A stretch of DNA of 64,000 bases from Candidatus Nomurabacteria bacterium (GTDB taxonomy: Bacteria; Patescibacteriota; Minisyncoccia; Phycocordibacterales; UBA9973). The notes under the pieces are model-generated. The model did not search any database. It was not told the DNA's origin and saw only the letters and a program-made list of their open reading frames with translations. Positions 1 through 19,261 of this stretch are shown one piece after another. The stretch covers positions 64,603 through 128,602 of the forward strand of contig JAHFNT010000004.1 in assembly GCA_023267195.1 (NCBI GenBank). Direction: 5' to 3'. The position numbers were made by a program, and so were the translations under genes. Every line of letters starts with the position of its first letter. The stretch's first letter is position 1.

Positions 1-2674
1 AGGGCGCCAGAAGTCGCAGTCAAGTTAAGCGCACCAGTAGTTTGAGTCAAGCCATTTGAAGCAGCCAAAGTACCAGTAGAAGTGATCGTGCCAGTACCTG
101 TTGTTGAAATATTTCCGGAAGTAGTAATATCGTTTGTTGTGGAGATAGAACCAAATCCAGAGGCAATCGAACCAGAAGACAAGGCGCCAGTGGCAGTAAT
201 AGAAGAAGTAACAACGTTAGAAGCAAGAGTTGTACCAGAAATGTTAGCAGCTGCGTTCACTGTTATTGAAGAATTAGGAAATGTTATTGTTCTGTCTGCC
301 GTAGGGTCAGTAAAAGCAAAAGTTGTTTCAAAAGCGTCAGCTGTTACTCCTTCAAAAACAAGAGGCGATGCTCCAGAAAATACCGCACTGCCAACATCAA
401 TAACTCCAGAAGTCGCAGTCAAATTAAGAACCCCATTTGTAAGTGTTAAACCATTTGATGCGGTTAAAGTTTGAGTTGAGGTAAGAGCGCCATTGTTTGT
501 CGTCGTCACTCCTGTCTGTCCTATCGCCACAGAAGTAGCAGTAGAAGTTCCGAGATTTAGAGCTGTTGTAGCGTCGAGAGTTAAAGATGTAGTAGAGGTG
601 ATAGATGTTGCCCCAGTACCAGTCAAAGTAGCACTTCCTGCCGCTATTCCAAAACGAGTTGCTCCACTTGTAATTAAATTAAGTCCGTTTGCATCAGTAG
701 TACCAAGAGTAGCAGTGGCACCGAAGGCATTGCCAGATTGAACAAAAGCAAAACCGCTAACGGTCCCAGAAGTTGCAGGTAATACAACCACTCTCCAACG
801 AGAAGCTCCAGAGTCATATTGCAAACCAACCGAAACCCCATCTGATAAAGTGAGATTACCTCCAGCAGTTGTCAAAATACGATTTGCTTCTGCTGAACCA
901 GCATCTTCATTTGTCAAAACAAGACTAGAACCAGAAACATTCATAATACGAATAAAACGACCGTCTGTTCCACCAGCAATACCAGTAAAAGTAGCAGTGC
1001 TTGCACCTGTATATCTAAACAAAGATCCAGTCCCAAGACTCACATCATTCTGCGTTCCAGTTGTCGCATAATCTGACCCTTTTGGAGTAGTATAATTTCC
1101 ACTTTGAGTAAAAGTGCCGCTTACTGTTTCTGCTCCACTTACAGTCAAAAGACCTGTACCAGTTGTAATAGCTCTATTGGTTGTAGTGTTAAGTCCAAGA
1201 GTTCCTGTCCCGGTCATATCTAAAACAGAAGAATTCCCTGCTAAAGTTATAGCTGTAGAATTTATTGTCGTAACCCCCGTACCTGTTGTAAAAGTATTTG
1301 AACCAGACACAATAGTACTCCCTCCAAAATTTATTCCTCCAGAACCGGAATTTATATTTATAGCAGTTGCTCCGGTTGTATTACCGACAGTAATAGTTTT
1401 TGCTACTGCATCTGTACCGACATTTATCGCCCCTGTACCAGACTGCAGAGTGATTGGGGTATTTAGTGTGGCACTGTCTCCAAGAATCAAACCACCGGTT
1501 GCCGTAGTATCAAAAATAGTTGTACCTCTGGCTCCCAAACTAAATGGCTTAGCGGTACTAGCAGCAATTGTAGCTATTCTTTGTAAATACCCAGTACCAG
1601 AAGAAGCGGAGGTTTCAGAAATATTAAAACCGTTGGTAGCACCAGACAAAACCCAATTCCAATTTATAATATTATTACCGTTACCAATGGTAGCATTACC
1701 TGTAGCAGCGCTAACGGAACTCAATGCTGCTGAACCAGCACCAGAAGGACTCCAAGTTAAATTACCAGCGCCATCATTGGTTAAAACATCTCCACTTCCT
1801 CCTTGTGAAGATGGAAATGAAGTGGTTACATTGTTGATTTTTGTAATGTTGCCAGTGACTTCATCTACATTGAGTTTACTTGTGTTTACAACACAAGTGG
1901 GACAAGCTCCAGCGGAAGACCAAGACAAAACACCCAATCCGTCAGTGGTAAGAACTTGACCAACGGTGCCATCGGAACCTGGTAGAGTCCAAACAACATT
2001 ACCACCCAAAAGATCCGGGGATTTGAAACCAATGTAATTTACTCCGTTCGCCACAAGTTCTGCAAAACGAAGTTCTGTGGTATCGCCAGCGCCAGTATCA
2101 AACGGATTTAATGTCAGACCAGAGGAAGAGATCAGAGTTCCCCCTCCACTACCTGCATTTATATTTACACTTGTTGCTCCGGTGACATTACCCAGGGTTA
2201 TGGTTTTTGCTACAGCATCAGTGCCAAGACTGATTGCTCCCGTACCGGTGTTTAAAGTAAAAATTCCATTTGTTGTAGTGTGAGTAGTACCTCCTGTGCC
2301 TGTATTTATGTTGACGGCGGTTGCATCAGTAATATTACCAATAGTAATTGTTTTAGCATTTGCGTTAGTGCCTATATTTATGGCTCCCGTACTTCCTGAA
2401 TCTAGGGTCAGTGCGCCAGTAGTTCCTGAAGTTATATTAAGCGCTGAACCAGCAGCGGATGAAAGAGAAAGCGTATTGTTTGTGGTGATCGTTGTTGCTC
2501 CTGTACCAGTCAGCGTCGCGCTTCCTGCAGCGATTCCGAATCGAGGATTACCACTTGTTAGGAAATTAAGCCCGTATGCATCGGTAGTACCAAAAACAGC
2601 TGTCGCACCAAAGGCATTTCCAGATTGGAGAATAGCATAAGAACTTATTCCTTCTCTGGTTGTGGGAAGAGTGT
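1..2674 (-). CDS. Giant Gly/Thr/Asn/Ala-rich repetitive surface protein, downstream portion. No start codon; continues past the window start. Probably the same gene as 2675-4777, interrupted by a frameshift.
   Basis: The minus-strand translation is open from 2699 down to the window edge. It reads ...ILQSGNAFGATAVFGTTDAYGLNFLTSGNPRFGIAAGSATLTGTGATTIT... The plus-strand ORFs in the track (82-2640) are PV/VA-rich mirror artifacts of it. Large internal repeats: ~480-740 resembles ~2290-2640, and ~1370-1450 resembles ~2150-2230. There is no ATG, GTG or TTG in the first ~60 codons after the upstream in-frame TGA at 2700-2702. Confidence 0.55.
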
Positions 2675-4777
2675 CTAAATGCCAAACATTTGTTGTGTGT
2701 CATATATAAAACCAACCATAAGATTTGGTGTTAGAGTTATATCACTACCGGTTGGTGTTTCAATTTGGTTGGCAGCTAATGAACTACCATTTAAGTTTGA
2801 AATAACTAAATTGCTTGCACTGTCATTAAATATATGAACCTCACGCCCATCTGCACCGCCAGCAATACCAGTAATTGTCGCAGTGCCAACACCTTCATAA
2901 TGAAAATAAGAACCATCGCTCAGTACTAAATTATTTAAAGTTCCCGTAGTGGTAATAGGGGTACCTCTTGGTGTAACGTAATTTCCAACAATTTTTATAC
3001 CACCATTAATAGTAGTTTCAACACCAGCTTTTCCAACACTCAAGGAAGTTGCATTTGTTGTGCCTAAATTTAAAGCAGCAGCAGAATCGACAGTCAAAGC
3101 ACCAGAACTTGTCGACCAAACAGACGCTCCTCCGCCTGTAATAGTCAAACCAGAAGAAGGAGTTATGGAAGTAATTCCTGTTGCTGAAGTAATGTTATTA
3201 TTAACACCAGCAATGGCATTAGCAAAACCAGTATGGCCAGAAGAGGCATAATCTAAGCCAGTCAGATTGGCATGATTTGTAACAGAAGTCGAAGAACTTC
3301 CTGACATCGAGATAAGTGAAGTTACTTCAGTGGCAGTCGAAGCAGATTTTTGAAAAACAATTTTCCCTAAAAGTTTTCCAAATACTTTTAAACGATTAGG
3401 TAACATAGAAACATCTGGTGCCATTTCAGCATCAGCCAATGACGAAGTGGTATATTCATCCATTCCATATACCATAGAAACCCTTGCGTTAGTATCTATA
3501 TAAAACCACAAGGTGGCATAATTGCCGTCTGTTATTGTAGCCAAGGTTCCTGAACTATCATCGTATTGTGTATTTGGCCATTGGGTAAGATTAGAAACTT
3601 TGGTAAAACCTCCTGATCCATCCATATAATACGCATCAAAATTACCAGTTATACTGGTATTGAGGGCTGGAACAGTATACCTATTCAGCCTGTCCCAAAC
3701 AGCGCCAGCTGTAAGTGTAATATTTCTAGTACCGGTTTCTCCCAAAACCAACCCTCCTTCGCGAATATCTGGAGAAAGTGGCATCGTTTCATATTCGCGC
3801 TGGATCATATTGGCCGCATGGTCACCAACAGCTTGTAAATCACTGTAAATATTTAACACCCCACCCTCATTAACAACCACGCCAATTGGAAAATCTGTTT
3901 TCAAATTCCAGTTTGCAGAAGTGCGAACTGTAACTTGCGGAGAACCTGAATTGTATTCAACTCCGACATAACGGATAGCATCTGTTGGAATAGCAACACC
4001 ACTTACCGCTGCCCAATCAAAATAATTGACTTGGCCAGAAATAGCATTATTACTTGTTCTAATAAGACCAGTACCAGCAGAAACATCTATGGTCTCTCCC
4101 CCAGCATCAGTGATAGTTCCGCCAGAGGTCCAGCCAGCCGAGTGGAAAACATTTTGCATATGCTGCAAGGTAGAAAAAGTAGAATTGCCTATTCGGGCCA
4201 ATGTTAAATTTTGCGCGCTGGCAGTACTCTGAAAAATACAATCTCCCCAAGCGCCATTTTCATAACAACGCAGTTTGTTTGTATTTGCATTGTAATACAT
4301 CGAACCGTTAGTTCCAGATGGATCACCAGCGTCAGATTTTACATCCAGAGTAAGCAAGTCTGGAGTAGAAGAACCAGCGCCGCCTGTACCGATTTGAATC
4401 GTACCGGAAGCTCCGGCATTAGCCGAAAGAACTAAACCTGAAGATGGTGTAGAGATAGTTCCACCACCGACAGATAAATTTCCAGCATCATCAATAGCAA
4501 CATCAAAAGATGCACCTTCAAAGGTGATAGTGTAACCACCTAAGGTTAAAGTTCTAGCAGCAGTAAGAGTAAGATCGGTATTACCAATATTAGTAACAGC
4601 AGGAGTTGAAACTCCACAAGAAGGAGAGCCTGGCGCGCAATCAGGTTCTAACGTATCTCCAGGAGCATAAACCGTTGCGTTGGCTACTTGCGATAATGAT
4701 AGACTAAATATAAAAATAAAAACAGTGAAAAATTTTGGAAGATAGTATTTTTTAAAATTGTATTTGAAATTGCTCAT
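2675..4777 (-). CDS. Large secreted Gly/Thr/Ser/Asn-rich repeat protein, N-terminal part with signal peptide (putative adhesin or S-layer-like surface protein)
   Basis: 700-aa ORF. N-terminal hydrophobic signal (FTVFIFIFSLSLSQVANA). Low-complexity G/T/S/N-rich body. C-terminal module ITGIAGGADGREVHIFNDSASNLVISNLNG...GFIYD also occurs in the minus-strand translation of ~800-1000. Confidence 0.7.
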   Translation of the reverse strand: MSNFKYNFKKYYLPKFFTVFIFIFSLSLSQVANATVYAPGDTLEPDCAPGSPSCGVSTPAVTNIGNTDLTLTAARTLTLGGYTITFEGASFDVAIDDAGNLSVGGGTISTPSSGLVLSANAGASGTIQIGTGGAGSSTPDLLTLDVKSDAGDPSGTNGSMYYNANTNKLRCYENGAWGDCIFQSTASAQNLTLARIGNSTFSTLQHMQNVFHSAGWTSGGTITDAGGETIDVSAGTGLIRTSNNAISGQVNYFDWAAVSGVAIPTDAIRYVGVEYNSGSPQVTVRTSANWNLKTDFPIGVVVNEGGVLNIYSDLQAVGDHAANMIQREYETMPLSPDIREGGLVLGETGTRNITLTAGAVWDRLNRYTVPALNTSITGNFDAYYMDGSGGFTKVSNLTQWPNTQYDDSSGTLATITDGNYATLWFYIDTNARVSMVYGMDEYTTSSLADAEMAPDVSMLPNRLKVFGKLLGKIVFQKSASTATEVTSLISMSGSSSTSVTNHANLTGLDYASSGHTGFANAIAGVNNNITSATGITSITPSSGLTITGGGASVWSTSSGALTVDSAAALNLGTTNATSLSVGKAGVETTINGGIKIVGNYVTPRGTPITTTGTLNNLVLSDGSYFHYEGVGTATITGIAGGADGREVHIFNDSASNLVISNLNGSSLAANQIETPTGSDITLTPNLMVGFIYDTQQMFGI

Positions 4778-4835: not shown

Positions 4836-5333
4836 TTATTCCTTCTTCTTCAATTTGGATTCCGTACCAACATAAAAGAGAATCGCCCCGTTGGTATCGA
4901 AAATTGGCGAAATAACAAGTTTAACTTCATAAAATTTCCCATCTTTACGTTTATTAGACAAAACAGTTTGAAAAGATTTCTTTTCTCCTTTTATGGCACG
5001 CCACATTTGCTTATAAAATTCCGGTGGCATTTGATTTCCCCATAAATCTGAAGGCTTTTTCCCTATCACTTCCTTTGTAGTAAATCCTGTTTCCTTTTCT
5101 GTAACCTTATTTATATAGACAATTTTTCCTTCGGGGTCAGTAATCATAACCTGATCAGTTACCTGCTCAAAAATTACGTTAATAGTACCGCAACGATTGC
5201 ACTTGATCTCTAAACTACCACCAAAAAAATCTTTGGCTAGAAGTTTATCGCACGAAACACAACGAATCGAATTGTCGGGAAGTTTTTTTGTTTCTTTTAT
5301 TTCGCTCATTGTATGATTCTCAACAACGCGCAC
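4836..5333 (-). CDS. Zinc-ribbon plus PAS-domain sensor protein (start may be Met9 at 5309)
   Basis: C-x2-C...C-x2-C ribbon (CVSCDK...CNRCG) followed by a PAS-like fold (ITDPEGKIVYINKVTEKETGFTTKEVIGKK...FYEVKLVISPIFDTNGAILFYVG). Confidence 0.6.
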   Translation of the reverse strand: MRVVENHTMSEIKETKKLPDNSIRCVSCDKLLAKDFFGGSLEIKCNRCGTINVIFEQVTDQVMITDPEGKIVYINKVTEKETGFTTKEVIGKKPSDLWGNQMPPEFYKQMWRAIKGEKKSFQTVLSNKRKDGKFYEVKLVISPIFDTNGAILFYVGTESKLKKKE

Positions 5334-5458: not shown

Positions 5459-5547
5459 TGGCGGAACCGGAGGGATTCGAACCCTCGAGACCTTTCAGCC
5501 TACGCGCTTTCCAAGCGCGCGCACTCGACCGCTATGCGACGGTTCCA
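5459..5547 (-). tRNA. tRNA-Ser (anticodon GGA). Long variable arm, G73, encoded CCA.
   Basis: Reverse complement folds as acceptor GGAACCG/CGGTTCC, 3-bp D stem, anticodon stem CGCGC/GCGCG with loop TTGGAAA, a long variable arm and T arm GAGGG-TTCGAAT-CCCTC. Confidence 0.8.
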
Positions 5548-5594: not shown

Positions 5595-8155
<2,561 letters not shown>

Positions 8156-8156
8156 A

Positions 8157-8594
8157 TTATTCTATCCAATTAAATAAATTTTCGGAAAAAGTAATACTAT
8201 AAGTACCTGAACCTTGGTCCCAGTCAACCATTGAGAGTATCTTTACTTCATCATCCGAACCTATATCCACTATTGAAAGAGAGCGGCGAAAATTTGAATC
8301 ATTTACAAAAGGACATGTTATATCTGTATTGGGGTCAAGGGCTACAAAATCTTTCCACCCAAGTCCAGTGACAGCTGTATACAAAACATAATTATCACGC
8401 ACGTTTCTGATACATTCAATCCCCTCTTGCGCTAAATACGAAGCCTTCATTTTCTGTTTGGCATAGCCAGTATCAGAGATGCCAGAAGCCAAAACAGACA
8501 AAAGCGCCAATATAGACATAGTAAAAATTGAAATCGCCACCAATGTTTCTACTAAAGTAAACCCGCTATTTTTTTGTTTAAAAAATTTCTGCAT
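8157..8594 (-). CDS. Prepilin-type N-terminal cleavage/methylation domain minor pilin
   Basis: N-terminus KNSG|FTLVETLVAISIF matches the class III signal (G|FTLxE). Confidence 0.7.
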   Translation of the reverse strand: MQKFFKQKNSGFTLVETLVAISIFTMSILALLSVLASGISDTGYAKQKMKASYLAQEGIECIRNVRDNYVLYTAVTGLGWKDFVALDPNTDITCPFVNDSNFRRSLSIVDIGSDDEVKILSMVDWDQGSGTYSITFSENLFNWIE

Positions 8595-8599
8595 AATTT

Positions 8600-9217
8600 C
8601 TAAATATCTATTTGCCTTTGCGAAACGGAAGTTTGCAGCGAAAAAGGCGAGACAACATTTTTATAAGTTATTTTCCCGATCAATTTAATAGTAATAAAGG
8701 GTTGCTCATGATCGCCAGTACCATCCGGATCCGGTGCCTCGGCGCCAGTTACTAAAAAGGAAGAAGTCGCATCAATCTCTACTTCTTCGGGCGTCAATTG
8801 AATAAAATTGGACAAATTGGATGGACCATTGATTGATTTAAAAATTTTACCTGAATCTATATAGTAAACCCACTGATCATCATTGTTATCATAACTACCT
8901 AAAGCGCTCTCAAAAGCAACACCCCAGCCACCAGATGAACAACTTTTTGGATTACTCATGTTGGGAGTTGGCAATGTATCTTCTCCCGCAACCAAGCAGT
9001 GATAGTTGTACCCTGTCCTTAAATTTTTAGACATATCTTCCATAATAAAACTCAAGTTATCGATAATTGAACGCATATCACGTGATTTCTGGTGAAGTAA
9101 ATTAGCATTGAGAAGCGCGCCAGTGCCTATCATGACAATAATTATAAAAAGAGAAATAGCAATCATCGTTTCTATTATCGTATACCCTCCTTGATTTTTT
9201 AAATATTTTTTTATCAT
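8600..9217 (-). CDS. Prepilin-type minor pilin / pseudopilin
   Basis: N-terminus KNQGG|YTIIETMIAISLFIIIV matches the prepilin peptidase motif with Glu at +5. Confidence 0.7.
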   Translation of the reverse strand: MIKKYLKNQGGYTIIETMIAISLFIIIVMIGTGALLNANLLHQKSRDMRSIIDNLSFIMEDMSKNLRTGYNYHCLVAGEDTLPTPNMSNPKSCSSGGWGVAFESALGSYDNNDDQWVYYIDSGKIFKSINGPSNLSNFIQLTPEEVEIDATSSFLVTGAEAPDPDGTGDHEQPFITIKLIGKITYKNVVSPFSLQTSVSQRQIDI

Positions 9218-9243
9218 TTGATTTGGTGCAACTAGCTTGAATT

Positions 9244-9924
9244 TTAATCAACTTCTATTCTGCCCGATGGATATATTTTTATGTTGGAGTTCTCGCTAGA
9301 GGGCGAGGCAAAAACAATCTCTACATAAGAAACAACACCTAAATTTGCAGTCGATCTTAGAATTGCACCTGAATTAGGTCTAGAAAAAGTTACTGTCAAA
9401 TCAGTTATGGGCGTTGAACCACCTTCATAATAAACATCTAAACTAGAGATCCTATTTTCTTTTGTAATGGTAATTTTTTCTAAACATTCGCTATTGCCCA
9501 GACAGTCTGGATCTGCTAATTCTCCATTTTGATCTAAATCAGTAAAATAATTGAAGCTTTTATTGTCCCCCCCAGCACTAATGTCAAAATAAATTCCATA
9601 GGAGGGTCGCCAAGTAGGGTCAATTTGCGCCTGTTGCGAAAGTGGAGGAAGCACTCCGGATAGGGATGATTTTTGCGCTTCAATGACCTTGAGAGCAACG
9701 TCGCTGGCCAAATTTTTAACATCAATTTTGGATTGAAAATTACCGTAGTTAAAAATTGCAACAGAAGATAAAACAGAAAAAATAGAAAGGACGACAATAA
9801 GCTCTACATAAGTCATCCCTCGGGAATACTCGGGATGACACTGAGGAAACATCGAAGGTGTCATCCCGCCGTTGCAATTACTACTTTTCAATTTAAAATT
9901 ACGAATTATCATAAACAAATCCAC
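9244..9924 (-). CDS. Prepilin-type minor pilin. The probable true start is the ATG at 9864, giving leader MTPSMFPQCHPEYSRG.
   Basis: Contains ...EYSRG|MTYVELIVVLSIFSVL, a class III signal. The upstream extension of the listed ORF overlaps a perfect hairpin and has no pilin features. Confidence 0.65.
   Translation of the reverse strand: MDLFMIIRNFKLKSSNCNGGMTPSMFPQCHPEYSRGMTYVELIVVLSIFSVLSSVAIFNYGNFQSKIDVKNLASDVALKVIEAQKSSLSGVLPPLSQQAQIDPTWRPSYGIYFDISAGGDNKSFNYFTDLDQNGELADPDCLGNSECLEKITITKENRISSLDVYYEGGSTPITDLTVTFSRPNSGAILRSTANLGVVSYVEIVFASPSSENSNIKIYPSGRIEVD
9831..9868 (-). promoter_or_regulatory. Perfect 11-bp stem hairpin spanning the putative start codon and leader-peptide codons of the minor pilin gene
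   Basis: cgggatgacac...(16 nt)...gtgtcatcccg. On the minus strand the ATG lies inside the stem. Confidence 0.4.
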
Positions 9925-9935
9925 CTATATAGAAA

Positions 9936-10724
9936 CTAAAAAAGATGCAGTTCAAAAATGAATGATAAAAATACACCCACGGCTAAATAAGGAGCAAAAG
10001 GAAGTTCGCTTTTAAATCTGTATTTTTTGGAAAAAATAATAAGAAATAAACCAATAACAGACCCAATCCAGAAACTCAACACTGCGCCGGAAAGAGCTAG
10101 GGGAAAACCAAGGAGCCATCCTAATCCAACCATAAGTTTGGCATCTCCGAGACCCATCCATCTCCCCTTCGATATCAACCAGAATAAGGCAAAACAGATA
10201 GCAATCAGTAATGGATAAAAGAATTCTGCAACAGATGGAAGATGCGGATAAAAAGCGGGAAAAAATGATCGATCAAACAAAAACAACCCTATAAATGCCA
10301 AAAAACCAAAACCAAATGAAAGAATATCAGGAATTATTTTATGTTTTAAATCATAAACAGAAATTACTAGCAAAAGTGAAAATGCAACTGCGTAATAGGC
10401 ATACGTGGCAGTGAAAGATAGGGTTGAAAAAAGGAAAGTATTTTGAAATTTTAAAAACAAAGCGGCAAAAACAACTCCAGTCGCCAGCTCAACCATAGGA
10501 TACTGAATGGATATTTTGGTTTTACAAGTGCGGCATCTACCTCTTAGTCCTAAAAAACTGACAACTGGAATAAGTTCGTACCAAGAAAGCTTGTTTTGGC
10601 AAGACATGCAAGCACTCCTCCCCCCGAAAGACTTTTGGGTATTGAATCGAAAAATCACAACGTTCAAAAAGCTCCCGATGATAAGACCAAAAACAAAGAA
10701 AATAATTGTGAGAATTGGAATCAT
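9936..10724 (-). CDS. pilD: Prepilin peptidase (A24 family) PilD
   Basis: GSFLNVVIFRF, a tetra-Cys region (CMSCQNKL...CRTCK), a YPMVE motif and multiple transmembrane segments. Confidence 0.9.
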   Translation of the reverse strand: MIPILTIIFFVFGLIIGSFLNVVIFRFNTQKSFGGRSACMSCQNKLSWYELIPVVSFLGLRGRCRTCKTKISIQYPMVELATGVVFAALFLKFQNTFLFSTLSFTATYAYYAVAFSLLLVISVYDLKHKIIPDILSFGFGFLAFIGLFLFDRSFFPAFYPHLPSVAEFFYPLLIAICFALFWLISKGRWMGLGDAKLMVGLGWLLGFPLALSGAVLSFWIGSVIGLFLIIFSKKYRFKSELPFAPYLAVGVFLSFIFELHLF

Positions 10725-10742
10725 ATTCTAACTAAAAAAAAA

Positions 10743-11180
10743 TTAAGGGCACACGGTATTTCCCGCACCGAGCACATTCGTTCCTATTTTCATGATGGCC
10801 GTGTAATCTATGCAGGCATATTGTGTCGGATCTTCTTTGAGCTGAACTTGAGCTGCCCATTGATTTGTGCTACTACCCACCGTATGCACAGTTGTTTGAC
10901 TATCTAGAAAAGTTAAAATGGCTTGGATATTTACACTTGCAGAAGCCCAGGTATTATTACTGGTAAATAAATTATTATAAGAATTGCCATTACCAATAGC
11001 ATACAGCTCAGCCTCAGATCGCAGGGAAGCCATTTGCTCTTTAATGGCAGAATCTTTTCCTTTTTTCTGTGCACTAGAAAGCATTCCTATGACAATGGTG
11101 GCTAAAATTCCTATAATACCAACAACAACTAAGAGCTCCATTAAGGTAAATCCCTTTTTAAATATTTTTATATTTTTCAT
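10743..11180 (-). CDS. Type IV pilin (PilA-like)
   Basis: MKNIKIFKKG|FTLMELLVVVGIIGILATIV N-terminal methylation domain. 145 aa. Confidence 0.85.
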   Translation of the reverse strand: MKNIKIFKKGFTLMELLVVVGIIGILATIVIGMLSSAQKKGKDSAIKEQMASLRSEAELYAIGNGNSYNNLFTSNNTWASASVNIQAILTFLDSQTTVHTVGSSTNQWAAQVQLKEDPTQYACIDYTAIMKIGTNVLGAGNTVCP

Positions 11181-11223
11181 AAAATTAAATAATTAATAAT
11201 TGCTACCATTATACCATAAAAAC

Positions 11224-11256
11224 AAAAACCACCCCAGGAAGGTGGTTTTTGTTTTT
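11224..11256. terminator. Bidirectional rho-independent terminator between the two pilin genes
   Basis: aaaaaccacc-ccaggaa-ggtggttttt, with an A run before and a T run after. Confidence 0.6.
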
Positions 11257-11273
11257 AAGAAAAATTCCCAAAA

Positions 11274-11708
11274 TTATGAAGCCGGACAAACAACTACTGT
11301 TGCACCTATTGCTGCAGAAACAGCATGAGAAGCCCCAGCTGAATCTACACACCAATGGCCAGAAGACTTAAGCGGTGATGAAATAGCCCACGAGCTAGCA
11401 GCTCCTGAGGCCGGCTTACCACAAACAGCTGTACCACCCGAAGCCGTGTTAGCAGCAGCGATAGCAGAAGCAATTGTTGCGTTTTGCGTTACGCTGTTTG
11501 CTCCGCACACAGCATCATAGTCTCCATCTGTATCATAAATCAACTCTGCTTGAGCACGAGTGTTTGCCAAGTTTGCCTTTACGGCAGCATCAGCCCCTTT
11601 TGCACGCGCAGTATTGAGCGAAGCCAAAACAACAGAAGCAAGAATACCAATAATGGCAACAACCACTAAGAGTTCAATCAACGTAAAACCTTTTTTAAAA
11701 TTCTTCAT
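11274..11708 (-). CDS. Type IV pilin (PilA-like major pilin candidate). Has C-terminal Cys pairs.
   Basis: MKNFKKG|FTLIELLVVVAIIGILASVV. 144 aa. Confidence 0.85.
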   Translation of the reverse strand: MKNFKKGFTLIELLVVVAIIGILASVVLASLNTARAKGADAAVKANLANTRAQAELIYDTDGDYDAVCGANSVTQNATIASAIAAANTASGGTAVCGKPASGAASSWAISSPLKSSGHWCVDSAGASHAVSAAIGATVVVCPAS

Positions 11709-11875
11709 ACTTTTAAAATTAATTAATAATAATTTATAATCACGCCTCCCCGGCGTTTCAGCCGGTTAAGCTGAATATTTTCGACTTATTTTTAATATGC
11801 TTATTATATCATAAGGATAATAATCTATAAGCAACAAAGTTATCCACACCTGCCTGCGGCGGGTAGAGATAAATT

Positions 11876-13084
11876 CTAGCTTATACTTCCCGCCATATTG
11901 TAAATAGGCATTAAAACAGAAACCAAAAGTATCCCCACCCCTAAACCCAAAACTACAATCATCACCGGCTCTATAAGCCCGACTAAAGTATCAACCGCAT
12001 CGTCTACCTCGCGTTTATAAAAATCAGTTAATGTTTTTAATATAGTGCCTAGAGAACCGGTTTCCTCTCCCACCAGCACCATTTGCACCATAATTCCTGG
12101 TATTTGCTCCGGGTGTTTTTCAAATGCCATCGAAAGAGCCAATCCAGACTTTACAGAATCGGCAACTTCCACCAATAAATCTTTATATACCAGGGATCCT
12201 ACAACTTCAGCAGTAATATCTATGGCTCGCACTATTGGTACTCCTGAAGAAAGCATGGTATTTAGATTGTCTGTTATTCTGGAAAGATAGAGTTTTTTGT
12301 AGAGATTGCCCACTGCTGGCGTGGAAAGACGTAATGTATCCAAGTAAATTTTCCCTCTTGGGGTAGACGATAGTCGCCAAACCCAAATTCCCAAAAGTAC
12401 CAAGAAAATTAAAATAAAGAATCCATAATGAACAAATAAGTTTGAAACTGCTATCACTATTTTTGTAAAAAATGGTACCGCCTGTCCTGAGTCAAGAATA
12501 ATTGATGATAGTTTCGGAATGACAACAGTAAACATCAAGGTCATCACCACAATAAATGTAACAATAACAAAAGCTGGATAGATAAGGGCGTTTCTCGTCT
12601 TGGAAGTAAGAGCATATTGGCGATCTAAATATTCTGCCAAATGTAGAAATGTTTGGTTGAGTTTTCCTGTCTCTTCACCCACTTTCACCATGTTTATATA
12701 AAAATCGGAAAAAACATCTGTGTGGCGGGCCAAAGCCCCTGAAATAGAAATCCCCGCCTGAAGGTCATCTCCTATTTGAGTCAATTTTCTACCCAAAAGC
12801 TTATTTTCAGTATTGTTGGCAAGCATGGTGAAAGCCTTTAAAGCAGAAACTTGCGCCTCAAATAAGGTCGCAATTTGCCGCGATAAAATCACCACATCTT
12901 TTGGTTTTACCCTTTCAAAAAAAGAAATTTCAAAAATAGATTTATTTTCGCTTTGTTCATTTATAGATAGAATGATAAAACCGCGACGTTGAAGTCCGCT
13001 TATAGCTATATCGCGATTCGGAGCATCTATCTCTCCTTCTTTGCTTATTCCCTTGTCATCTATTGCCTTGTATTTAAATAACAT
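11876..13084 (-). CDS. pilC: Type IV pilus assembly platform protein PilC (GspF family)
   Basis: 402 aa. Two GspF-like repeats with three transmembrane segments. Sits between pilT and the pilins. Confidence 0.85.
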   Translation of the reverse strand: MLFKYKAIDDKGISKEGEIDAPNRDIAISGLQRRGFIILSINEQSENKSIFEISFFERVKPKDVVILSRQIATLFEAQVSALKAFTMLANNTENKLLGRKLTQIGDDLQAGISISGALARHTDVFSDFYINMVKVGEETGKLNQTFLHLAEYLDRQYALTSKTRNALIYPAFVIVTFIVVMTLMFTVVIPKLSSIILDSGQAVPFFTKIVIAVSNLFVHYGFFILIFLVLLGIWVWRLSSTPRGKIYLDTLRLSTPAVGNLYKKLYLSRITDNLNTMLSSGVPIVRAIDITAEVVGSLVYKDLLVEVADSVKSGLALSMAFEKHPEQIPGIMVQMVLVGEETGSLGTILKTLTDFYKREVDDAVDTLVGLIEPVMIVVLGLGVGILLVSVLMPIYNMAGSIS

Positions 13085-13091
13085 AGAATTA

Positions 13092-14150
13092 TTATATCAA
13101 CCGTTCTAGGCCTTTCGGATTAAGCGAATACTGATAAGCATTTTCAATTGAAATTTCTCCTGCGCGAACCAGTTCAATAAGAGAATGGTTCAAATCTACC
13201 ATTCCGGATTCCATTCCTGTTTCTATAACAACATCTATTTCATGAGTACGTTTCTCGCGAATGAGGTTCGAAACCGCATTATTATTCAAGAGAAGTTCAT
13301 AAGCTGGTATGAGCCCACCTGAAATTCTAGGAATAAGTCTCTGGGAAAAAATTCCGAGAAGCGATGACGCAAGCTGGGCGCGAATTTGATCTTGTTGATT
13401 TCCAGGAAATGAGTCAATTATTCTATCAATCGTTTGCGAAGCATTATTGGTATGGAGAGTAGATAGCACCAAGTGCCCTGTCTCCGCTGCAGTCACCGCA
13501 GTTGAAATAGTTTCCGGCGTGCGCATTTCACCGATCATAATCACATTTACATCTTCACGAAATACTTCTTTCAGGGCTATATGGAAATCCTTGGTATCTA
13601 TGCCAACCTCTCGCTGATTAATGATAGATTTATTAGGCACATAAACATGTTCAATAGGATCTTCAATAGTTATGATATGCCGCGCCTGTTCGTTGTTGAT
13701 TATGTTAACCATTGCGGATAACGTGGTTGATTTTCCCTGCCCGACAGGACCAACAACTAAGAAAAACCCCTGCTTTTTCCGAGCCAAATCTGCTAGAATC
13801 GGGGGTAATTTTAGTTCGGAAATAGTTTGGACTTTGGGCACAAGTCTAAATACAATATTAACCAAACCTTTCTGGAAAAAGGCATTACCCCGCAGTCTTG
13901 CTTCTCCTCGAAAATCATAAGAAAAATCGGCTTCCTGGTTTTCTTTGAATTTTTCAACTTTGGCTTTGTCCAAAATTTCCCCCAGAAACCCAAGCATGTC
14001 TGCCTGTGTCAAAATCGAGTGTTTTGAAAGAAAAATAAGCTCACCCGATACGCGAACAGCCGGCACTCGTCCTGCACCCAGATGCAGATCGGAACCATCC
14101 TCACGAATAACATTCAAAATAAGTTCTTCTAATTCTTTTTTGTAGTCCAT
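13092..14150 (-). CDS. pilT: Twitching motility / pilus retraction ATPase PilT
   Basis: 352 aa. N-terminal GSDLHL, Walker A GPVGQGKSTTL, His box and Asp box (IIDSFP). Confidence 0.85.
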   Translation of the reverse strand: MDYKKELEELILNVIREDGSDLHLGAGRVPAVRVSGELIFLSKHSILTQADMLGFLGEILDKAKVEKFKENQEADFSYDFRGEARLRGNAFFQKGLVNIVFRLVPKVQTISELKLPPILADLARKKQGFFLVVGPVGQGKSTTLSAMVNIINNEQARHIITIEDPIEHVYVPNKSIINQREVGIDTKDFHIALKEVFREDVNVIMIGEMRTPETISTAVTAAETGHLVLSTLHTNNASQTIDRIIDSFPGNQQDQIRAQLASSLLGIFSQRLIPRISGGLIPAYELLLNNNAVSNLIREKRTHEIDVVIETGMESGMVDLNHSLIELVRAGEISIENAYQYSLNPKGLERLI

Positions 14151-14153
14151 ATT

Positions 14154-14585
14154 TTAATCTGTAATTTTTTTTAAAACTTTATTTTCTAAAATTTTTACTA
14201 CTTGGTCTATTACCTCTGTCGGGGTAGAGTTTGCTTTCACAATATAGCCCGCAACTCCTAATTTATTGCTTTTTTCTATATCTTCTTGCTCGTTCTTATT
14301 GGACAACACTACCCTCATACAATTAGAGCATAGCTTTTCTTTGTTCATTTGTTCCATGGCTTCAAAACCATCCATCTCTGGCATTATTATATCCATAAGA
14401 AGAAGATCAGGAGATAATCCGCCTCTTAATTTTTCGAGAGCCTGTAATCCACTTGCCGCAGTATAAACCTCAAAACCGTTTTGGCTGAATTTTAGTGCAT
14501 ACATATCCAGAAGGAAACTATCATCATCCACTATTAAAATTTTTTTTCTTTCTCCCTCCATATACAAGCTAATTATACTACACAA
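14154..14585 (-). CDS. Single-domain response regulator, CheY-like receiver (PilH/PilG-like). Likely start is MEGERKK at 14561.
   Basis: KKILIVDDDSFLLDMYALKF...LLLMDIIMPEMDGFEAMEQM receiver motifs. No output domain. Confidence 0.75.
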   Translation of the reverse strand: MCSIISLYMEGERKKILIVDDDSFLLDMYALKFSQNGFEVYTAASGLQALEKLRGGLSPDLLLMDIIMPEMDGFEAMEQMNKEKLCSNCMRVVLSNKNEQEDIEKSNKLGVAGYIVKANSTPTEVIDQVVKILENKVLKKITD

Positions 14586-14625
14586 TAGCTTCTAATAGAA
14601 ACCCTAAAAATATACGCTAAGCAAA

Positions 14626-16368
14626 CTACTCGTTTTCGTTGCTAAAATTATAAACTTCAGTAAAAGGAATTACCCCTTGTAGTGATTTTAGCATTGCATC
14701 CTCCCTCATCATTAACATACCCTTACTACGTGCCAGCTTGTAAATTGCCGCATCAGTAGGATTTTTTAAGATTACTGCCTGCATTTCCTTGTCAATTTTA
14801 AACATCTCAAAAACGGCAATACGCCCTCTTGTTCCAGAGGGACATTCCGGCGAAGGCACTGTATCATACATCTTATCGCCTATTGTTGGTTTAAATTTAT
14901 CTGGCAGATCTTTCATTTGTTCTTCAATTTGAATTTTGATGCTTGGATCCATGGGCATTTCTTTGCGCGAAGCTGGAAAAGTCATTCGAGCCAAACGTTG
15001 GGCAATGGATACTATCAAGGTAGGGGCAATTAGGTATGGATCTACCCCCATATCTACAAGGCGAGGAATTGCTCCGATTGCGTTGTTGGTGTGAAGGGTA
15101 GAGAGCACAAGATGCCCAGTTAGAGCAGCCTGAATTGCAAGCTGGGCTGTTTCTTTATCACGAATTTCTCCAACCATTATTATGTCCGGGTCCTGTCGTA
15201 AAATTGAACGAAGCCCTGAAGCAAACGTGTATCCAATTTCTGGCATCATTTGCGATTGATTGATATCCGGCATATGATACTCCACTGGATCTTCCAGAGA
15301 TATAATATTACTTTTTTCTTTATCAAGCGCATTCATCATTGAATATAGTGTTGTTGATTTTCCAGAACCAGTCGGCCCAGTCACCAAGATTAAACCGTAC
15401 GGCCTTGTTATCGCCTCTTTGAGTATGTTTAAATTTACTTCAGACAATCCCAATTGATCTAGGGGTTTGACGCCTTTTTCAGAATCCAAAATACGCATCA
15501 CAACCTTCTCTCCATAATATGCCGGCATCGTAGAAACACGGAAATCAATTTTATGCCCATCAATATTTGCACTGAAGGATCCGTCTTGGGGTTTACGTTT
15601 CTCATCCAGTCTCAACTTGGCAAGAATTTTTATACGTGCGACAATTCCACCATAAACATTTGGCGGCAATACTATTGTGGTGTGGAGCACCCCATCCACG
15701 CGAAAACGTACTTTAACTTTTTCACCAGTATGTTCAATATGGATATCAGAAGCACCCCCTTCTATCGCATTTCGCAATATTACCGCAACAATTTTTATAA
15801 CAGGAGCATCTTCCACAATCTTTACCTCCTCTCCTAATTTTATATTTTTAATTTCCTTGCTGAGATTTTCTTCGCTCACACCCTTTGCATCATCCATATC
15901 TTCTTTGCTTAGTTCTTTCAATGCTTCTTCTACTTGAATTCCCATTCCTCTGTACGTCTGTATTATGCTTTCGTAGTCACTTTTAGAAATCAGAAAAATT
16001 TTAAATGGAATACCAACTTTGGTGGAAATAAATTGAAGCGCGTCCATCGCTTGTATATTTTCTGGGTCCATTACCCCCACCTCAAGCACACCATCCTTTA
16101 ATTCAATTGGAGCAAAATGATAGTGTACGGCTGAATCTTCAGAAATATACTTAAGCACATCAAAGGAAATTTCTTCTAAATTTACCTTTTTCACCGGTAT
16201 GCCCAAATACTCCCCCCTCGTCTCAAGGATTTTTTCTTCTGGAATACCAAATTGGGCAAGCGCCTCATCAATATTTCCATCCCATTCCTTTGCTGCGCGA
16301 CTTTTAATCTCGCCTATCTGGCTTCCTTTTATTAAACCTTTTTTTGCTAATTCTTCTAAAAAACTCAT
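14626..16368 (-). CDS. pilB: Type IV pilus assembly ATPase PilB (GspE family)
   Basis: 580 aa. N-terminal GSPII_E_N-like domain, Walker A GPTGSGKSTTL and C-terminal Cys motifs (PECPSGTRG). Confidence 0.9.
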   Translation of the reverse strand: MSFLEELAKKGLIKGSQIGEIKSRAAKEWDGNIDEALAQFGIPEEKILETRGEYLGIPVKKVNLEEISFDVLKYISEDSAVHYHFAPIELKDGVLEVGVMDPENIQAMDALQFISTKVGIPFKIFLISKSDYESIIQTYRGMGIQVEEALKELSKEDMDDAKGVSEENLSKEIKNIKLGEEVKIVEDAPVIKIVAVILRNAIEGGASDIHIEHTGEKVKVRFRVDGVLHTTIVLPPNVYGGIVARIKILAKLRLDEKRKPQDGSFSANIDGHKIDFRVSTMPAYYGEKVVMRILDSEKGVKPLDQLGLSEVNLNILKEAITRPYGLILVTGPTGSGKSTTLYSMMNALDKEKSNIISLEDPVEYHMPDINQSQMMPEIGYTFASGLRSILRQDPDIIMVGEIRDKETAQLAIQAALTGHLVLSTLHTNNAIGAIPRLVDMGVDPYLIAPTLIVSIAQRLARMTFPASRKEMPMDPSIKIQIEEQMKDLPDKFKPTIGDKMYDTVPSPECPSGTRGRIAVFEMFKIDKEMQAVILKNPTDAAIYKLARSKGMLMMREDAMLKSLQGVIPFTEVYNFSNENE

Positions 16369-16380
16369 AACTCTTTTGGA

Positions 16381-16797
16381 TTACGGCGTAGCTGGGGCTC
16401 CGGTCGGAGCGGCAACACTACCAGAATTACTTATGGGCGCCGACATTTCATCATTACCAAATTGAGCAAAAGGATTTGGACGCCCTTCGTTGCCATCCGG
16501 AATAAGAGTAATACTAGAATCGTGCAAATTATTAAAAGATGGATCGGAAAAAATCGAGTCGTCTAGTTTTATATTCTTGACATTCAGTAACAATGCAAGA
16601 AAATCTTTGGCAACCACGGGAGTTTCACTTAGGGCACCCGCCCCAAATTCAGAACTATTTGTGCTAGCAGGCAAACCGAGAGAAGGCGAAGAAACTAAAT
16701 TTTCCTGAGGGGAAGATTCTTTAATATAAAAAATATAAATAAGAACAAAAACTGCCGCAATTCCAGTAAATATTAAGATGTTTTTAAGTTTTGGCAT
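16381..16797 (-). CDS. Membrane-anchored pilus assembly protein, PilP-like (GRPNPF motif)
   Basis: N-terminal transmembrane segment and a GRxNPF motif reminiscent of the PilP RDPF box. Sits between pilO and pilB. Confidence 0.4.
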   Translation of the reverse strand: MPKLKNILIFTGIAAVFVLIYIFYIKESSPQENLVSSPSLGLPASTNSSEFGAGALSETPVVAKDFLALLLNVKNIKLDDSIFSDPSFNNLHDSSITLIPDGNEGRPNPFAQFGNDEMSAPISNSGSVAAPTGAPATP

Positions 16798-16821
16798 TTT
16801 TCTATTGTATTTATTTAAATT

Positions 16822-17427
16822 TTAATTTTTCAGCCAGTAAGTTTTAATTTTGAAATCGTATTTATATATTTCCGAAGAAGTTGTTTTGCCACCGACACCC
16901 ACATTGGCAGAGTTTGAGGAAAATGCTACTGATGATATATCTACTATTCTAAGATTACTTTCTAAATCTTTGGTGAAATTAATAAAATTGTTGTAAGTCC
17001 CTGATGTAGAAAATTCTAAATCAAAAATTCCATAGTCTTTAGAAGCTGGTTTCAAGGTATTGCTCCCTTGAACCACTGCCCCTGCGCCCAGGGCGGCATT
17101 TGCATCCGGAGTGCTATATTTAACATCTTTCAAAACCATTCCATAAGGCATGGCTATCTGCTCTATTTCCAAGATGAGACGGATGTTGTCTACATTTTCA
17201 GGCAACAACTTGCTTAATCTCATCAAATTATCTGGATTGATAGAATTATATTTGGAAGTAAGCTTGTCACGCTCATTTTCGAGCGCTTTAGAATTATCCA
17301 GAGCTTCATTATAGGAAGCAGCTTCATTTTTTAATTCGGATATCCCGGTATAAATAGGATTGGTAAATACAAAAAAAATGGATATTGCGATTCCTATTAA
17401 AATAATTGGCGTAACAAATCTCATCAT
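16822..17427 (-). CDS. pilO: Type IV pilus assembly protein PilO-like
   Basis: N-terminal transmembrane segment plus a coiled-coil region, then a PilO-like C-terminal domain. Positioned after pilN. Confidence 0.6.
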   Translation of the reverse strand: MMRFVTPIILIGIAISIFFVFTNPIYTGISELKNEAASYNEALDNSKALENERDKLTSKYNSINPDNLMRLSKLLPENVDNIRLILEIEQIAMPYGMVLKDVKYSTPDANAALGAGAVVQGSNTLKPASKDYGIFDLEFSTSGTYNNFINFTKDLESNLRIVDISSVAFSSNSANVGVGGKTTSSEIYKYDFKIKTYWLKN

Positions 17428-17453
17428 AAAAATTTATTCATTTAAATCAAACT

Positions 17454-18050
17454 TTAAATTTGCGCCGAAAATGCTTGCTTATAATTCACAAATGAAGGAT
17501 CGACCGAAAACTCCAGATCAAACAGCACATTGCCACTCTGGTCTAAAGTTAAATTGGAAAAAACAGGATCAATCAAATTCTTGTTTTGGGCAAACAAATC
17601 AGACTGCAAAGCTATTGAACGATACCCTATAGCCTGCCCAGACATTTTTATGTCTATTGCAATATTTTTATCTGTGTTTAAGACATAACTGAATTTAGTA
17701 AAACGAACAGTCTTCATAGTAAGCTGTTCAAGCGCGCTGAAAATCGGCGTAACTGTAATATGTTTGGATAAAACTTCGCTTGAAGCGCGCAAACGTTTGT
17801 CTAGAACTTGCAACTCGGCTATTTTGGAAGGCTCAAAACGATTTCTAGCCAAGGCTAAGGTATTTTCCATTTCAGCAATACTTTTGTTCAAAATCCCCCG
17901 GTAAAAGTACAATCCGCCTGTCGCCAAAAGCACAGCAAATAAAATAAACAAAGAAATAACCAAAAAAATACTCACGGGCCTAGAAGAAACAGCGTCTTCC
18001 TTGATTAGAGGCTTTTTGGGTATAAATGATGTTTGAAAATTTTGCTCCAT
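17454..18050 (-). CDS. pilN: Type IV pilus assembly protein PilN-like
   Basis: Short cytoplasmic N-terminus, then a transmembrane segment (VSIFLVISLFILFAVLLATGGLYF), then a periplasmic domain. Positioned after pilM. Confidence 0.6.
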   Translation of the reverse strand: MEQNFQTSFIPKKPLIKEDAVSSRPVSIFLVISLFILFAVLLATGGLYFYRGILNKSIAEMENTLALARNRFEPSKIAELQVLDKRLRASSEVLSKHITVTPIFSALEQLTMKTVRFTKFSYVLNTDKNIAIDIKMSGQAIGYRSIALQSDLFAQNKNLIDPVFSNLTLDQSGNVLFDLEFSVDPSFVNYKQAFSAQI

Positions 18051-18133
18051 TATACTCTACTATTATATTACAAAAACAACTTTTTAAAAAGTAAATTGTG
18101 CATAACTTCCTTTAAGCATGACCTCCCTCTTTG

Positions 18134-19261
18134 TTATTGTAGCTTTCTCAATGCCAAACCAAGTGCCACGGCAAATTCCGGGCCCATCGCAGAAAGAACT
18201 TTCTCCAAAAATGCCGGGGCTTCCACTTTGGAAAATGGATGACCTATTTCTACCTCAGCTCTGAAATTATTTACCGCCACTTCTGAAAGTCCTTTTAGTA
18301 AAGATCCCCCTCCGGTAAATATCACCTTACTGATAGTCCGGTTATATTTCTTTTCATACCCCAGCAGAACATTGTTGGCTTCTGAAAATATGTAATCAAT
18401 ATGAACTCGGATAATGTCAGCCAAACTTTTCTCCGTACTATCACCGAACAAACCAAACTCTTTTTTCATTTTTTCGGCTTGGGCGAAGGGAATGCTCAAG
18501 GATTTGGAAATTGAATTGGAGATATCCGCGCCCCCCCTATCTATCGTGTGATAATTTTTAACCATCCCAAATTCCACAATAGAAAGTTTGGTACGTGACG
18601 CGCCAAAATCTATCAATAAAACCGGGGAAAGCTCGTGCTCAAAATTTGCACGAATGGAAGAAAATATTTCAACTTCAAAAAAAGAAGCATTTAGGTCACA
18701 TTGAGAAATAACTGACTTATATTTGGCTACTGCATCGTTCTGGGTAGCCACCACCAACACATTAATTTTATTTATTTGCTCCAGGGAAGAATCGCCGCTA
18801 TTCATCTCTTCAAAAGAAGATTCTTTTTTGGGTAAAATAAAGTAGTCAACTGAAACTTCAGTAATTGGAACTGGTATATATTTACGGGCTTCAGTAGAAA
18901 CAATGGTAGACAATTCAGCATCGTTCATTTCAGCCGGAAGTGTAAGAGTAAAAATTAAACTTGATTGAATAGGAATAGAAAGAGCCAAGTTTGTACCAGT
19001 AACGCCAGATTGCTTTAAAACCTCCTGTAGAGCTAGGACTATTTTTTCAACCGGAAGATTTGTAACACGCCCAGAATCCTGATCCGCATAAGGACCCAAG
19101 GATATAGCGCCATAGGTTTCAAGCACGGCTTTGCCTCCCTTTTTTTTAATTTCAACCACCTTGATAGCGGAAGATCCAATGTCTACTCCGACAGCGCTGT
19201 CTTCTCTCCCACCCCCAATTTTGCCAAAACCTGAAAAAATATTCTTTAATAAATTGCTCAT
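18134..19261 (-). CDS. pilM: Type IV pilus assembly protein PilM (actin-like ATPase fold)
   Basis: 375 aa. VGVDIGSSAIKVVEIKKKGG N-terminal phosphate-1 motif. Confidence 0.8.
   Translation of the reverse strand: MSNLLKNIFSGFGKIGGGREDSAVGVDIGSSAIKVVEIKKKGGKAVLETYGAISLGPYADQDSGRVTNLPVEKIVLALQEVLKQSGVTGTNLALSIPIQSSLIFTLTLPAEMNDAELSTIVSTEARKYIPVPITEVSVDYFILPKKESSFEEMNSGDSSLEQINKINVLVVATQNDAVAKYKSVISQCDLNASFFEVEIFSSIRANFEHELSPVLLIDFGASRTKLSIVEFGMVKNYHTIDRGGADISNSISKSLSIPFAQAEKMKKEFGLFGDSTEKSLADIIRVHIDYIFSEANNVLLGYEKKYNRTISKVIFTGGGSLLKGLSEVAVNNFRAEVEIGHPFSKVEAPAFLEKVLSAMGPEFAVALGLALRKLQ

Follow-up and report, generated by a model that had tools for sequence, protein, structure and literature searches.

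A giant tail-fiber-like protein gene of a Patescibacterium parted by a one-base shift, probably a recent deletion

On the minus strand at the start of the 64-kb window (the whole stretch of DNA analyzed here), a 700-codon open reading frame (ORF A) ends in ...GFIYDTQQMFGI with the TAG at 2677-2675, and a second and longer frame, shifted by -1 relative to it (frame B), carries on in the same direction. Are these two genes or one, and if one, is the shift between them an error in the consensus, a mutation, or a switch? Frame B starts after the TGA at 2702-2700, runs open for 899 codons, and leaves the window still open at its start; it overlaps ORF A only in 2699..2678 (CACACAACAAATGTTTGGCATT). 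Its first ATG, GTG, or TTG is a GTG at codon 215 with no Shine-Dalgarno-like sequence upstream, and it is the only long open frame in the window that has no start codon. On the 3′ side of the TAG, the frame of ORF A offers just short open stretches of 50-69 codons. The features discussed below are listed in Table 1.

Table 1. Features of the split gene and its surroundings, in window coordinates
Feature	Position	Strand	Basis
ORF A, 5′ part of the giant gene	2675..4777	-	translation; identity to ortholog N-termini; exact protein recorded in NCBI, ENA, and Logan
Frame B, continuation of the same gene	3..2699	-	open frame; 71-78% identical to P0001-P0004
First possible start codon of frame B, GTG	2052..2054	-	20 nt upstream AACTTCGTTTTGCAGAACTT; Shine-Dalgarno-like sequence absent
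Predicted Sec signal peptide (MSNFKYNFKKYYLPKFFTVFIFIFSLSLSQVANA / TVYAPG)	4676..4777	-	inferred from translation: basic N-terminus, hydrophobic core, A-x-A-type site
Conserved ~340-aa tail-fiber-like domain (ORF A residues 185-530)	3188..4225	-	homologs, PHROG, tblastn, AF2
β-module copy 1, ~105 aa, holding the frameshift	2658..2971	-	AF2 model of the repaired segment; alignment with 11 intact copies
β-module copy 2, intact paralog (..GLQYDSGASRWRVVVLP..)	771..1085	-	DNA self-BLAST, regular expressions, MAFFT
Missing-base site, 14 nt (ACACAACAAATGTT)	2685..2698	-	flanked by two invariant codons, Asp at 2701-2699 (frame A) and Trp at 2684-2682 (frame B)
Zn-ribbon (Com-type) and PAS gene, upstream neighbor of the giant gene	4836..5333	-	Pfam matches

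A comparison with orthologs argues strongly for a single gene. Specifically, i) four orthologs (P0001-P0004) are single proteins of 2205-2378 aa, 65-72% identical to the repaired fusion of ORF A and frame B over 89-100% of its length, and the alignment runs unbroken through the junction; ii) ORF A shares 64-67% identity with the N-terminal portions of P0001-P0005, and the 215 codons of frame B that precede any start codon are 72-78% identical to P0001-P0004; iii) the module in which the frames part is uninterrupted in 12 GTDB species-representative genomes (L008-L019), mostly labelled Patescibacteria, and no split ortholog was found either among P0001-P0004 or in these 12 genomes with the whole module; and iv) a similar Zn-ribbon/PAS gene lies directly upstream of the orthologs in L006 and L007, confirming orthology for these two. 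A search for two-gene orthologs, or for upstream stops in frame B, thus came out in favor of a single split gene. The preliminary description had proposed one modular gene in two ORFs separated by a 1-nt shift, the second of them without an authentic start; single-ORF orthologs, an alignment offset between module copies (see below), and a first candidate start at codon 215 that lacks a Shine-Dalgarno-like sequence bear out both proposals. Its description of the gene as pilus-adjacent holds in this window, but no pilus gene was seen near any of the four orthologous loci. We conclude that the minus strand of 1-4777 carries ~1,590 codons from the 5′ end of a single ancestral gene that was ~2,200-2,400 codons long, and that, judged from the orthologs, about 650-750 further codons of frame B would lie beyond the window.

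Homology to the orthologs and to the module copies narrows the shift to the 14 nt of the missing-base site. The spacing between the flanking Asp and Trp codons is 14 nt here as against 15 nt (5 codons) in 9 of 11 intact module copies (the other two have 27 nt, or 9 codons), so that one base is missing; an added base, as in a change from AAA to AAAA, restores YDTQQNVWHL and reproduces the conserved spacing. Consistent with a net deficit of 1 nt, the alignment offset between module copies 1 and 2 falls from 14 to 13 across the junction. The repeats were defined by DNA self-BLAST, regular expressions, and MAFFT (self-BLASTP of the protein returned no repeat pairs), and exactly two copies of the module are found in every ortholog. 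The recurring motif block noted earlier near the stop is therefore real, copy 1 (2915-2484) aligning to copy 2 (1029-597) at 65-78% DNA identity. AF2 modeling of the repaired segment gives residues 27-131 a pLDDT of 84-96 and puts the last two strands at residues 110-117 (..MVGFIYD) and 122-131 (VWHLDTLPTT), placing the missing base in the predicted turn before the last β-strand of a folded ~105-aa domain. Since it precedes a strand inside the domain, the break would not coincide with a clean module boundary, as had been supposed of the stop; rather, the TAG removes the last β-strand of the predicted domain.

Why is the base missing? The preliminary description had left open sequence error, pseudogene, and phase variation. 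We favor a recent mutation: the shift is probably a real and very recent 1-nt deletion, present in the DNA itself and not just in the consensus, that would have left the sampled population with a truncated allele or young pseudogene, neither programmed nor switchable. A sequencing or assembly error, in which the genome would have 15 nt and an intact gene and one A was dropped from the consensus, is unlikely, though much about the locus would suit it: indels do occur now and then in MAG consensus sequences, a single additional A in a short A run would be the simplest repair, and the downstream frame is undamaged and as conserved as the upstream part. But the identical 700-aa product is found on three contigs from three pipelines, of 6 kb (ENA), 10-20 kb (Logan), and 141 kb (NCBI), possibly derived from the same sequencing data, so that an error in the consensus, or a mixture of majority and minority alleles, could be common to all three. 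The ENA contig (L001), a MEGAHIT k141 short-read contig, is identical to the window at 100% over 5,934 nt including the site; short reads seldom carry indel errors at an A3 run, and only k-mers that recur are assembled. Nor does the assembly appear to be prone to indels, since the window contains 74 homopolymers of at least 7 nt and yet nothing else in its 64 kb looks frameshifted (no other open frame of at least 150 codons has its first start codon more than 43 codons in). Misassembly by repeat collapse or mis-joining is excluded because the paralogous module copies are too divergent at the DNA level (65-78% identity).

Slipped-strand phase variation, in which the ACACACAACAAA tract would often gain or lose a base and so turn the full-length fiber ON or OFF, the assembly capturing the OFF state, seems to us very unlikely. 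Contingency loci typically target large surface proteins, as in the poly-G/poly-C or pentanucleotide tracts of surface-protein genes in Neisseria, Haemophilus, and Campylobacter, and the giant protein resembles these targets in being of the large secreted or surface type and in having its shift in low-complexity sequence, a stretch of A and C only. Unlike those loci, however, the tract has just 2-3 repeat units, namely (AC)3, (CAA)2, and A3, whereas hypermutability is known from roughly 7-8 nt upward in homopolymers and 5-6 units upward in short repeats, and TRF reported no repeat at the shift site. What had been singled out as a simple-sequence tract is in fact commonplace, for the window holds 141 dinucleotide tracts of at least 3 units, 875 trinucleotide doublets, 2,709 three-base runs, and 57 two-letter tracts of at least 12 nt; nor is it conserved, since orthologs have unrelated codons at the site (TCC GGT GTC TCT CGT; GCC GAT TCT TTA AAT; etc.); and all three contigs, with a data source that is possibly common, carry the same allele. 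The earlier suggestion of phase variation thus finds no support in a tract so short, so common, and absent from orthologs. More broadly, it is very doubtful that the population switches the one-base gap back and forth, or that expression bypasses it, so as to yield a full-length tail-fiber-like surface fiber of ~2,250 aa at some times and a 700-aa secreted "head only" form at others; if so, the gene would be a contingency locus through which an episymbiotic Patescibacterium controls a putative host-attachment structure. The preserved 899 downstream codons are the only positive hint in that direction.

Two further readings would dispense with a mutation altogether. Programmed -1 ribosomal frameshifting, known in dnaX, IS3-family transposases, and phage tail assembly chaperones, or else transcriptional slippage, could in principle yield the full-length protein: frame B is intact, and the shift needed to join the two frames is -1, the usual direction of programmed frameshifting. 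Unlike those systems, however, this locus has no slippery heptamer (no X XXY YYZ occurs in the overlap, whose frame A codons are ACA CAA CAA ATG TTT GGC ATT TAG), no stimulatory structure (the 121 nt from the overlap downstream have an MFE of -22.6 kcal/mol against a shuffle mean of -21.9, z = -0.23), and no conserved shift, the orthologs and the 12 GTDB genomes carrying the whole module in frame with no need of one; moreover, the run at the site is just A3, which is too short for transcriptional slippage. Programmed frameshifting is therefore close to refuted. Recoding of the stop codon was also rejected, because readthrough of the TAG in frame A reaches a TAA 9 codons on and it is the other frame that carries the homology; the stops used in the window are 36 TAA, 15 TAG, and 4 TGA. 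It is also very improbable that fission of the ancestral gene has left two genuine, separately translated genes. A gene caller does annotate a second gene from the GTG at 2054, but i) the 215 codons before that GTG would then be non-coding, despite the protein identity to orthologs given above; ii) no Shine-Dalgarno-like sequence precedes the GTG; iii) the cut would take the last strand off a domain predicted to be folded; iv) the second product would lack a signal peptide; and v) no ortholog is split.

If the deletion is real, one base would have been lost between the codon for Asp693 and the next invariant Trp codon, most simply by a change from A4 to A3 in CAA-CAA-AAT. Ribosomes that start at the ATG at 4777 would thereupon leave the conserved frame and terminate 4 codons on at the TAG. 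For the protein, we infer that the sole product of the cell would be a 700-aa secreted fragment bearing the tail-fiber-like domain, lacking the last strand of the first β-module, and that the distal ~1,500 aa would go untranslated because frame B has no start codon for 215 codons. The locus resembles other frameshift-disrupted genes of bacterial genomes and MAGs in that the adjacent same-strand ORFs match consecutive parts of single orthologs, the second ORF is startless, and one base restores both the frame and the conserved spacing; it differs from them in the absence of secondary decay, for no stops, indels, or relaxed conservation could be found across the 899 downstream codons of frame B. 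The frameshift, if real, must accordingly be very recent, but we wish to stress that these undamaged codons fit an artifact or a bypassed frameshift as well as they fit a very young mutation. We were unable to find a sister strain with an intact copy by which to date the event: junction scans with exact anchors and a variable 8-14-nt gap gave no match in GTDB species genomes or JGI metagenomes, and a look-up of the neighboring PAS protein for strain variants returned the same three contigs. A real deletion would mean that the population can get by without a surface protein that is very costly to make.

In annotation, the two "genes" are best merged into a single entry that is flagged as frameshifted. 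The second of them in the gene caller's output (3881-6007 in L001) begins at window position 2054; left unmerged, the two enter the databases as hypothetical proteins of 700 aa and ~1,400 aa, each in a family of its own, and the 700-aa fragment is already a cluster representative. The frameshift itself is biologically ordinary. A more useful by-product is the description of the giant-protein family, which is worth structural and experimental follow-up.

Read from its sequence, the gene product appears to be a giant Sec-secreted protein of ~2,250 aa in a Patescibacteria (CPR) bacterium, built of a phage-tail-fiber-like domain, Thr/Gly-rich repeats, and the two ~105-aa β-modules; ortholog N-termini have the same signal-peptide layout. 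The ~340-aa domain is common to about 90 of the 105 homologs found. ORF A residues 200-493 match PHROG 5668 "tail fiber protein" at profile positions 95-383 of 1,567 (E 1e-30), and tblastn matches the domain to a gene of Stenotrophomonas phage vB_SmaS-DLP_6 annotated as tail fiber protein (E 4e-29, 31% identity over 82% of the domain). Modeled with AF2, the domain has a mean pLDDT of 79, and the top Foldseek matches in the PDB are the phi812 baseplate (E 1e-5) and the HFTV1 tail fiber, with TM-scores of at most 0.32 and a high rmsd. The profile match is thus shared with the PHROG 5668 family, of which the DLP_6 tail fiber is an example, but here just the one section of the full profile is matched, and, unlike the phage fibers, the domain belongs to a ~2,250-aa protein with a Sec signal, encoded among cellular genes. 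Its neighbors in the window are a PAS regulator, a tRNA, ligA, a type IV pilus cluster, and tmRNA/smpB, with no phage or prophage tail-module context, and no phage structural family was called at the orthologous loci, where the only phage-named calls were Zn_ribbon_Com and Phage_holin_4_2 (L007). Searches of Pfam, of NCBIfam, and of profiles against PDB sequences gave no match for either ORF or for the orthologs, and nothing specific to the giant-protein family could be found in the literature. We conclude that the protein belongs to a family of giant, apparently secreted proteins that is widespread in Patescibacteria, carries no Pfam or NCBIfam annotation, and is related to phage tail fibers.

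The ~105-aa module may have relatives of its own. The N-terminal β-domains of branched tailspikes (CBA120 TSP4; T4 gp10-like) resemble the twice-repeated module, and Foldseek matches the module with a probability of 1.0 and E values of 1e-3 to 5e-3 to TSP4 residues 1-335, the Pa223 capsid spike, and the Solidus tailspike, at low TM-scores (~0.33) and 11-17% sequence identity; the resemblance is a lead only. Members of the family often adjoin PAS or two-component signaling genes, and the combination of tail-fiber-like and tailspike-adaptor-like modules with these adjoining genes makes the giant protein a candidate host-attachment fiber.

Re-translation of the minus strand reproduced the ORF extents, the frame offset, and the missing start codon reported in the preliminary description, whose account and coordinates of the two frames are therefore correct. 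Frame B, the startless frame, is -1 relative to ORF A and opens immediately after a TGA at 2702-2700; its first ATG, GTG, or TTG is the GTG at 2054, codon 215, before which no Shine-Dalgarno-like sequence was found, and it is unique in the 64-kb window in being open for at least 150 codons with its first start codon more than 43 codons in. Past its TAG, the frame of ORF A has short open stretches only.

ORF A to ..YDTQQ, one inserted residue, and frame B from VWHL were joined in silico into a repaired fusion of 1,592 aa, which was searched against 5.8 billion proteins. Specifically, i) four orthologous proteins (P0001-P0004, 2205-2378 aa) are 65-72% identical to the fusion with 89-100% query coverage, cross the junction in alignment without interruption, and are each a single called gene at their own locus; ii) a Com-type Zn-ribbon and PAS gene lies directly upstream of the orthologue in loci L006 and L007, as in the window, and these are therefore positional orthologues; iii) in a scan that took one genome from each GTDB species, 12 more genomes (L008-L019) have the junction module as one unbroken tblastn segment, most of them labeled Patescibacteria, with Nomurabacteria, Taylorbacteria, Uhrbacteria, and Saccharibacteria among them; and iv) the 215 startless codons of frame B, with 72-78% identity to the four orthologues, are conserved no less than ORF A, with 64-66%. 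We conclude from these sequence comparisons that ORF A and frame B are one gene, and that some 650-750 more of its codons must be located past the window start. The core of the preliminary description, one giant modular gene split by a single-base frameshift, thus holds on the strength of the single-gene orthologues and the 14-nt spacing described below; the orthologue comparison it proposed yielded single proteins through the junction, not two genes.

The lesion lies in copy 1 of a ~105-aa beta-module present in exactly two copies per orthologue. When 11 intact copies (ten from five orthologues, and the window copy at 771-1085) are aligned with the repaired window copy, one Asp and one Trp are invariant, spaced by 5 codons (15 nt) in 9 of the 11 intact copies and by 9 codons in both P0003 copies. 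In the lesion copy, 14 nt separate the Asp codon (2701-2699), read in frame A, from the Trp codon (2684-2682), read in frame B, and, independently of this spacing count, the offset in a DNA alignment of the window's two copies falls from 14 to 13 across the site; exactly one base is thus missing within ACACAACAAATGTT (2698-2685). The simplest history would be AAAA to AAA, reversal of which would give back YDTQQNVWHL; P0002, the closest orthologue at the lesion, reads YDADSLNWHL. AlphaFold2 modeling of the repaired segment (200 aa) gives a confident all-beta domain at residues 27-131 (pLDDT 84-96), and the lesion falls in the turn that leads from strand 110-117 (..MVGFIYD) to strand 122-131 (VWHLDTLPTT), the last of the domain. 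The premature stop, earlier placed at an internal module boundary, therefore does not coincide with a clean boundary; the 700-aa product would be without this last strand and all distal sequence.

A real and very recent deletion is the probable cause, a step we infer from the assembled contigs. Three contigs (6 kb, 10-20 kb, and 141 kb), recorded in NCBI, ENA, and Logan, encode the identical 700-aa product, and L001, an ENA MEGAHIT contig (k141_15024), aligns to the window with 100% identity across 5,934 nt, lesion site included; both results count for a real deletion. The three contigs may nevertheless share the same reads, and an artefact would likewise leave the downstream frame undamaged; even so, a consensus error seems unlikely, an A3 run being an improbable location for one in short-read data, and the 74 homopolymers of at least 7 nt in the window, with no other sign of frameshift, indicate that the assembly is not indel-prone. 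Repeat-induced misassembly was ruled out, as DNA identity between the two module copies is no higher than 65-78%.

Switching, recoding, and true gene fission are more improbable still, even taken together. The earlier suggestion of phase variation finds no support: the tract at the lesion, (AC)3, (CAA)2, A3, is short, and known contingency loci have much longer tracts; it is commonplace in the window (141 dinucleotide tracts of at least 3 units, 875 trinucleotide doublets, 2,709 three-base homopolymers, and 57 two-letter tracts of at least 12 nt); the orthologue codons at its position are unrelated, so it is not conserved; and Tandem Repeats Finder reported no repeat at the site. As to recoding, the overlap, read in the zero frame, is free of X XXY YYZ heptamers, the RNA fold of 121 nt from the overlap region downstream is no better than that of shuffled sequence (z = -0.23), an A3 run is too short for transcriptional slippage, and none of P0001-P0004 and L008-L019 requires a frameshift. 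Read-through of the TAG is irrelevant, since a TAA follows 9 codons on and the homology is in the other frame; stop codons in the window are TAA (36), TAG (15), and TGA (4).

Overall, this is a frameshifted gene of ordinary type. It is most likely a pseudogene of recent origin or a truncated allele, although a consensus error may be responsible instead.

The 700-aa fragment (P0106, window 2678-4777, minus strand) is already the representative of its own cluster in public protein collections, and L001 has a second called gene, starting at GTG 2054, for the distal part; the frameshift is therefore spreading as two 'hypothetical proteins'.

Features of the giant gene and its surroundings (window positions unless a locus is named; L002, L004, L006, and L007 are the orthologous loci)
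Feature	Position	Strand	Remarks
ORF A	ATG 4777 to TAG 2677-2675	minus	700 codons; C-terminal end ...GFIYDTQQMFGI
Frame B	2699 to 3	minus	899 codons open; continues off window
Tail-fibre-like domain, ~340 aa	3188-4225	minus	ORF A residues ~185-530; PHROG 5668
Com-type Zn-ribbon + PAS gene	4836-5333; L006 5266-5811; L007 2923-3360	minus (window)	directly upstream of giant gene
Response-regulator / GAF-PAS-histidine-kinase genes	L002 2632-3015 and 11233-13362; L004 18085-20186		next to giant gene
Gene pair after giant gene	L002 10048-11229; L004 16474-18074; L006 12684-14356; L007 10337-12529		window equivalent beyond its edge
tRNA gene	5462-5546	minus	between ligA and PAS/giant-gene pair
Type IV pilus cluster, complete	7631-19261	minus	PilM, PilO-like, PilB-type and PilT-type ATPases, PilC; five proteins with N-terminal methylation motifs; one prepilin peptidase
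LOOT RNA (RF03000)	27766-27893	minus	Rfam, 55.8 bits (gathering score 46.4)
smpB	46025-46471	plus	tmRNA gene 14 nt further on
tmRNA gene	46485-46885	plus	120.9 bits

The frameshift itself is of low interest; the protein family is of moderate interest. The giant protein has no match among Pfam, NCBIfam, or PDB sequence profiles, and its N-terminus, read directly, is predicted to be a Sec signal peptide. Of the 105 homologues found, about 90 share the tail-fibre-like domain of ORF A, whose PHROG match is to family 5668, 'tail fiber protein' (E 1e-30). The domain also matches a gene annotated as tail fibre in Stenotrophomonas phage DLP_6 (E 4e-29), as well as stretches without annotation in uncultured phages of 635-735 kb. 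In fold comparison, its AlphaFold2 model (pLDDT 79) has as its first hits chains from phage baseplates and tail fibres, although with low TM-scores, and the duplicated beta-module resembles domains at the N-termini of the CBA120 tailspike TSP4 and of related spikes (Foldseek probability 1.0, TM ~0.33). Among the further homologues P0007-P0105, the domain occurs in about 90 otherwise dissimilar large proteins (880-2,750 aa), with start positions that range between residues 61 and 1312; some of these proteins also have Peptidase_S74, beta-helix, or Kelch domains from Pfam. The pattern looks like that of a family of shuffled modules, for which Pfam has no entry. The giant-protein family is unannotated, widespread in Patescibacteria, and related to phage tail fibres, and a plausible, putative function of the protein is that of a surface or host-attachment fibre.

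The giant gene sits in cellular rather than prophage surroundings, which include a tRNA gene, ligA, the complete type IV pilus cluster, and smpB with the tmRNA gene. The giant gene had been called pilus-adjacent, which is true of the window but not as a conserved trait, since no pilus gene was called near it in any of the four orthologous loci. PAS or two-component signaling genes adjoin it in every locus compared, and such constant neighbors suggest regulated expression. In every orthologous locus the giant gene is immediately followed by two genes that lack annotation (140-242 aa and 251-485 aa) and may encode partner or assembly proteins. An old integration site could be marked by the tRNA gene so close to one of tail-fibre-like type, but no further phage-like genes were seen. 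Elsewhere in the window, the LOOT RNA overlaps the start of ORF 27036-27770 by about 5 nt and reaches into the gap between this and the next listed ORF, 28584-29231.
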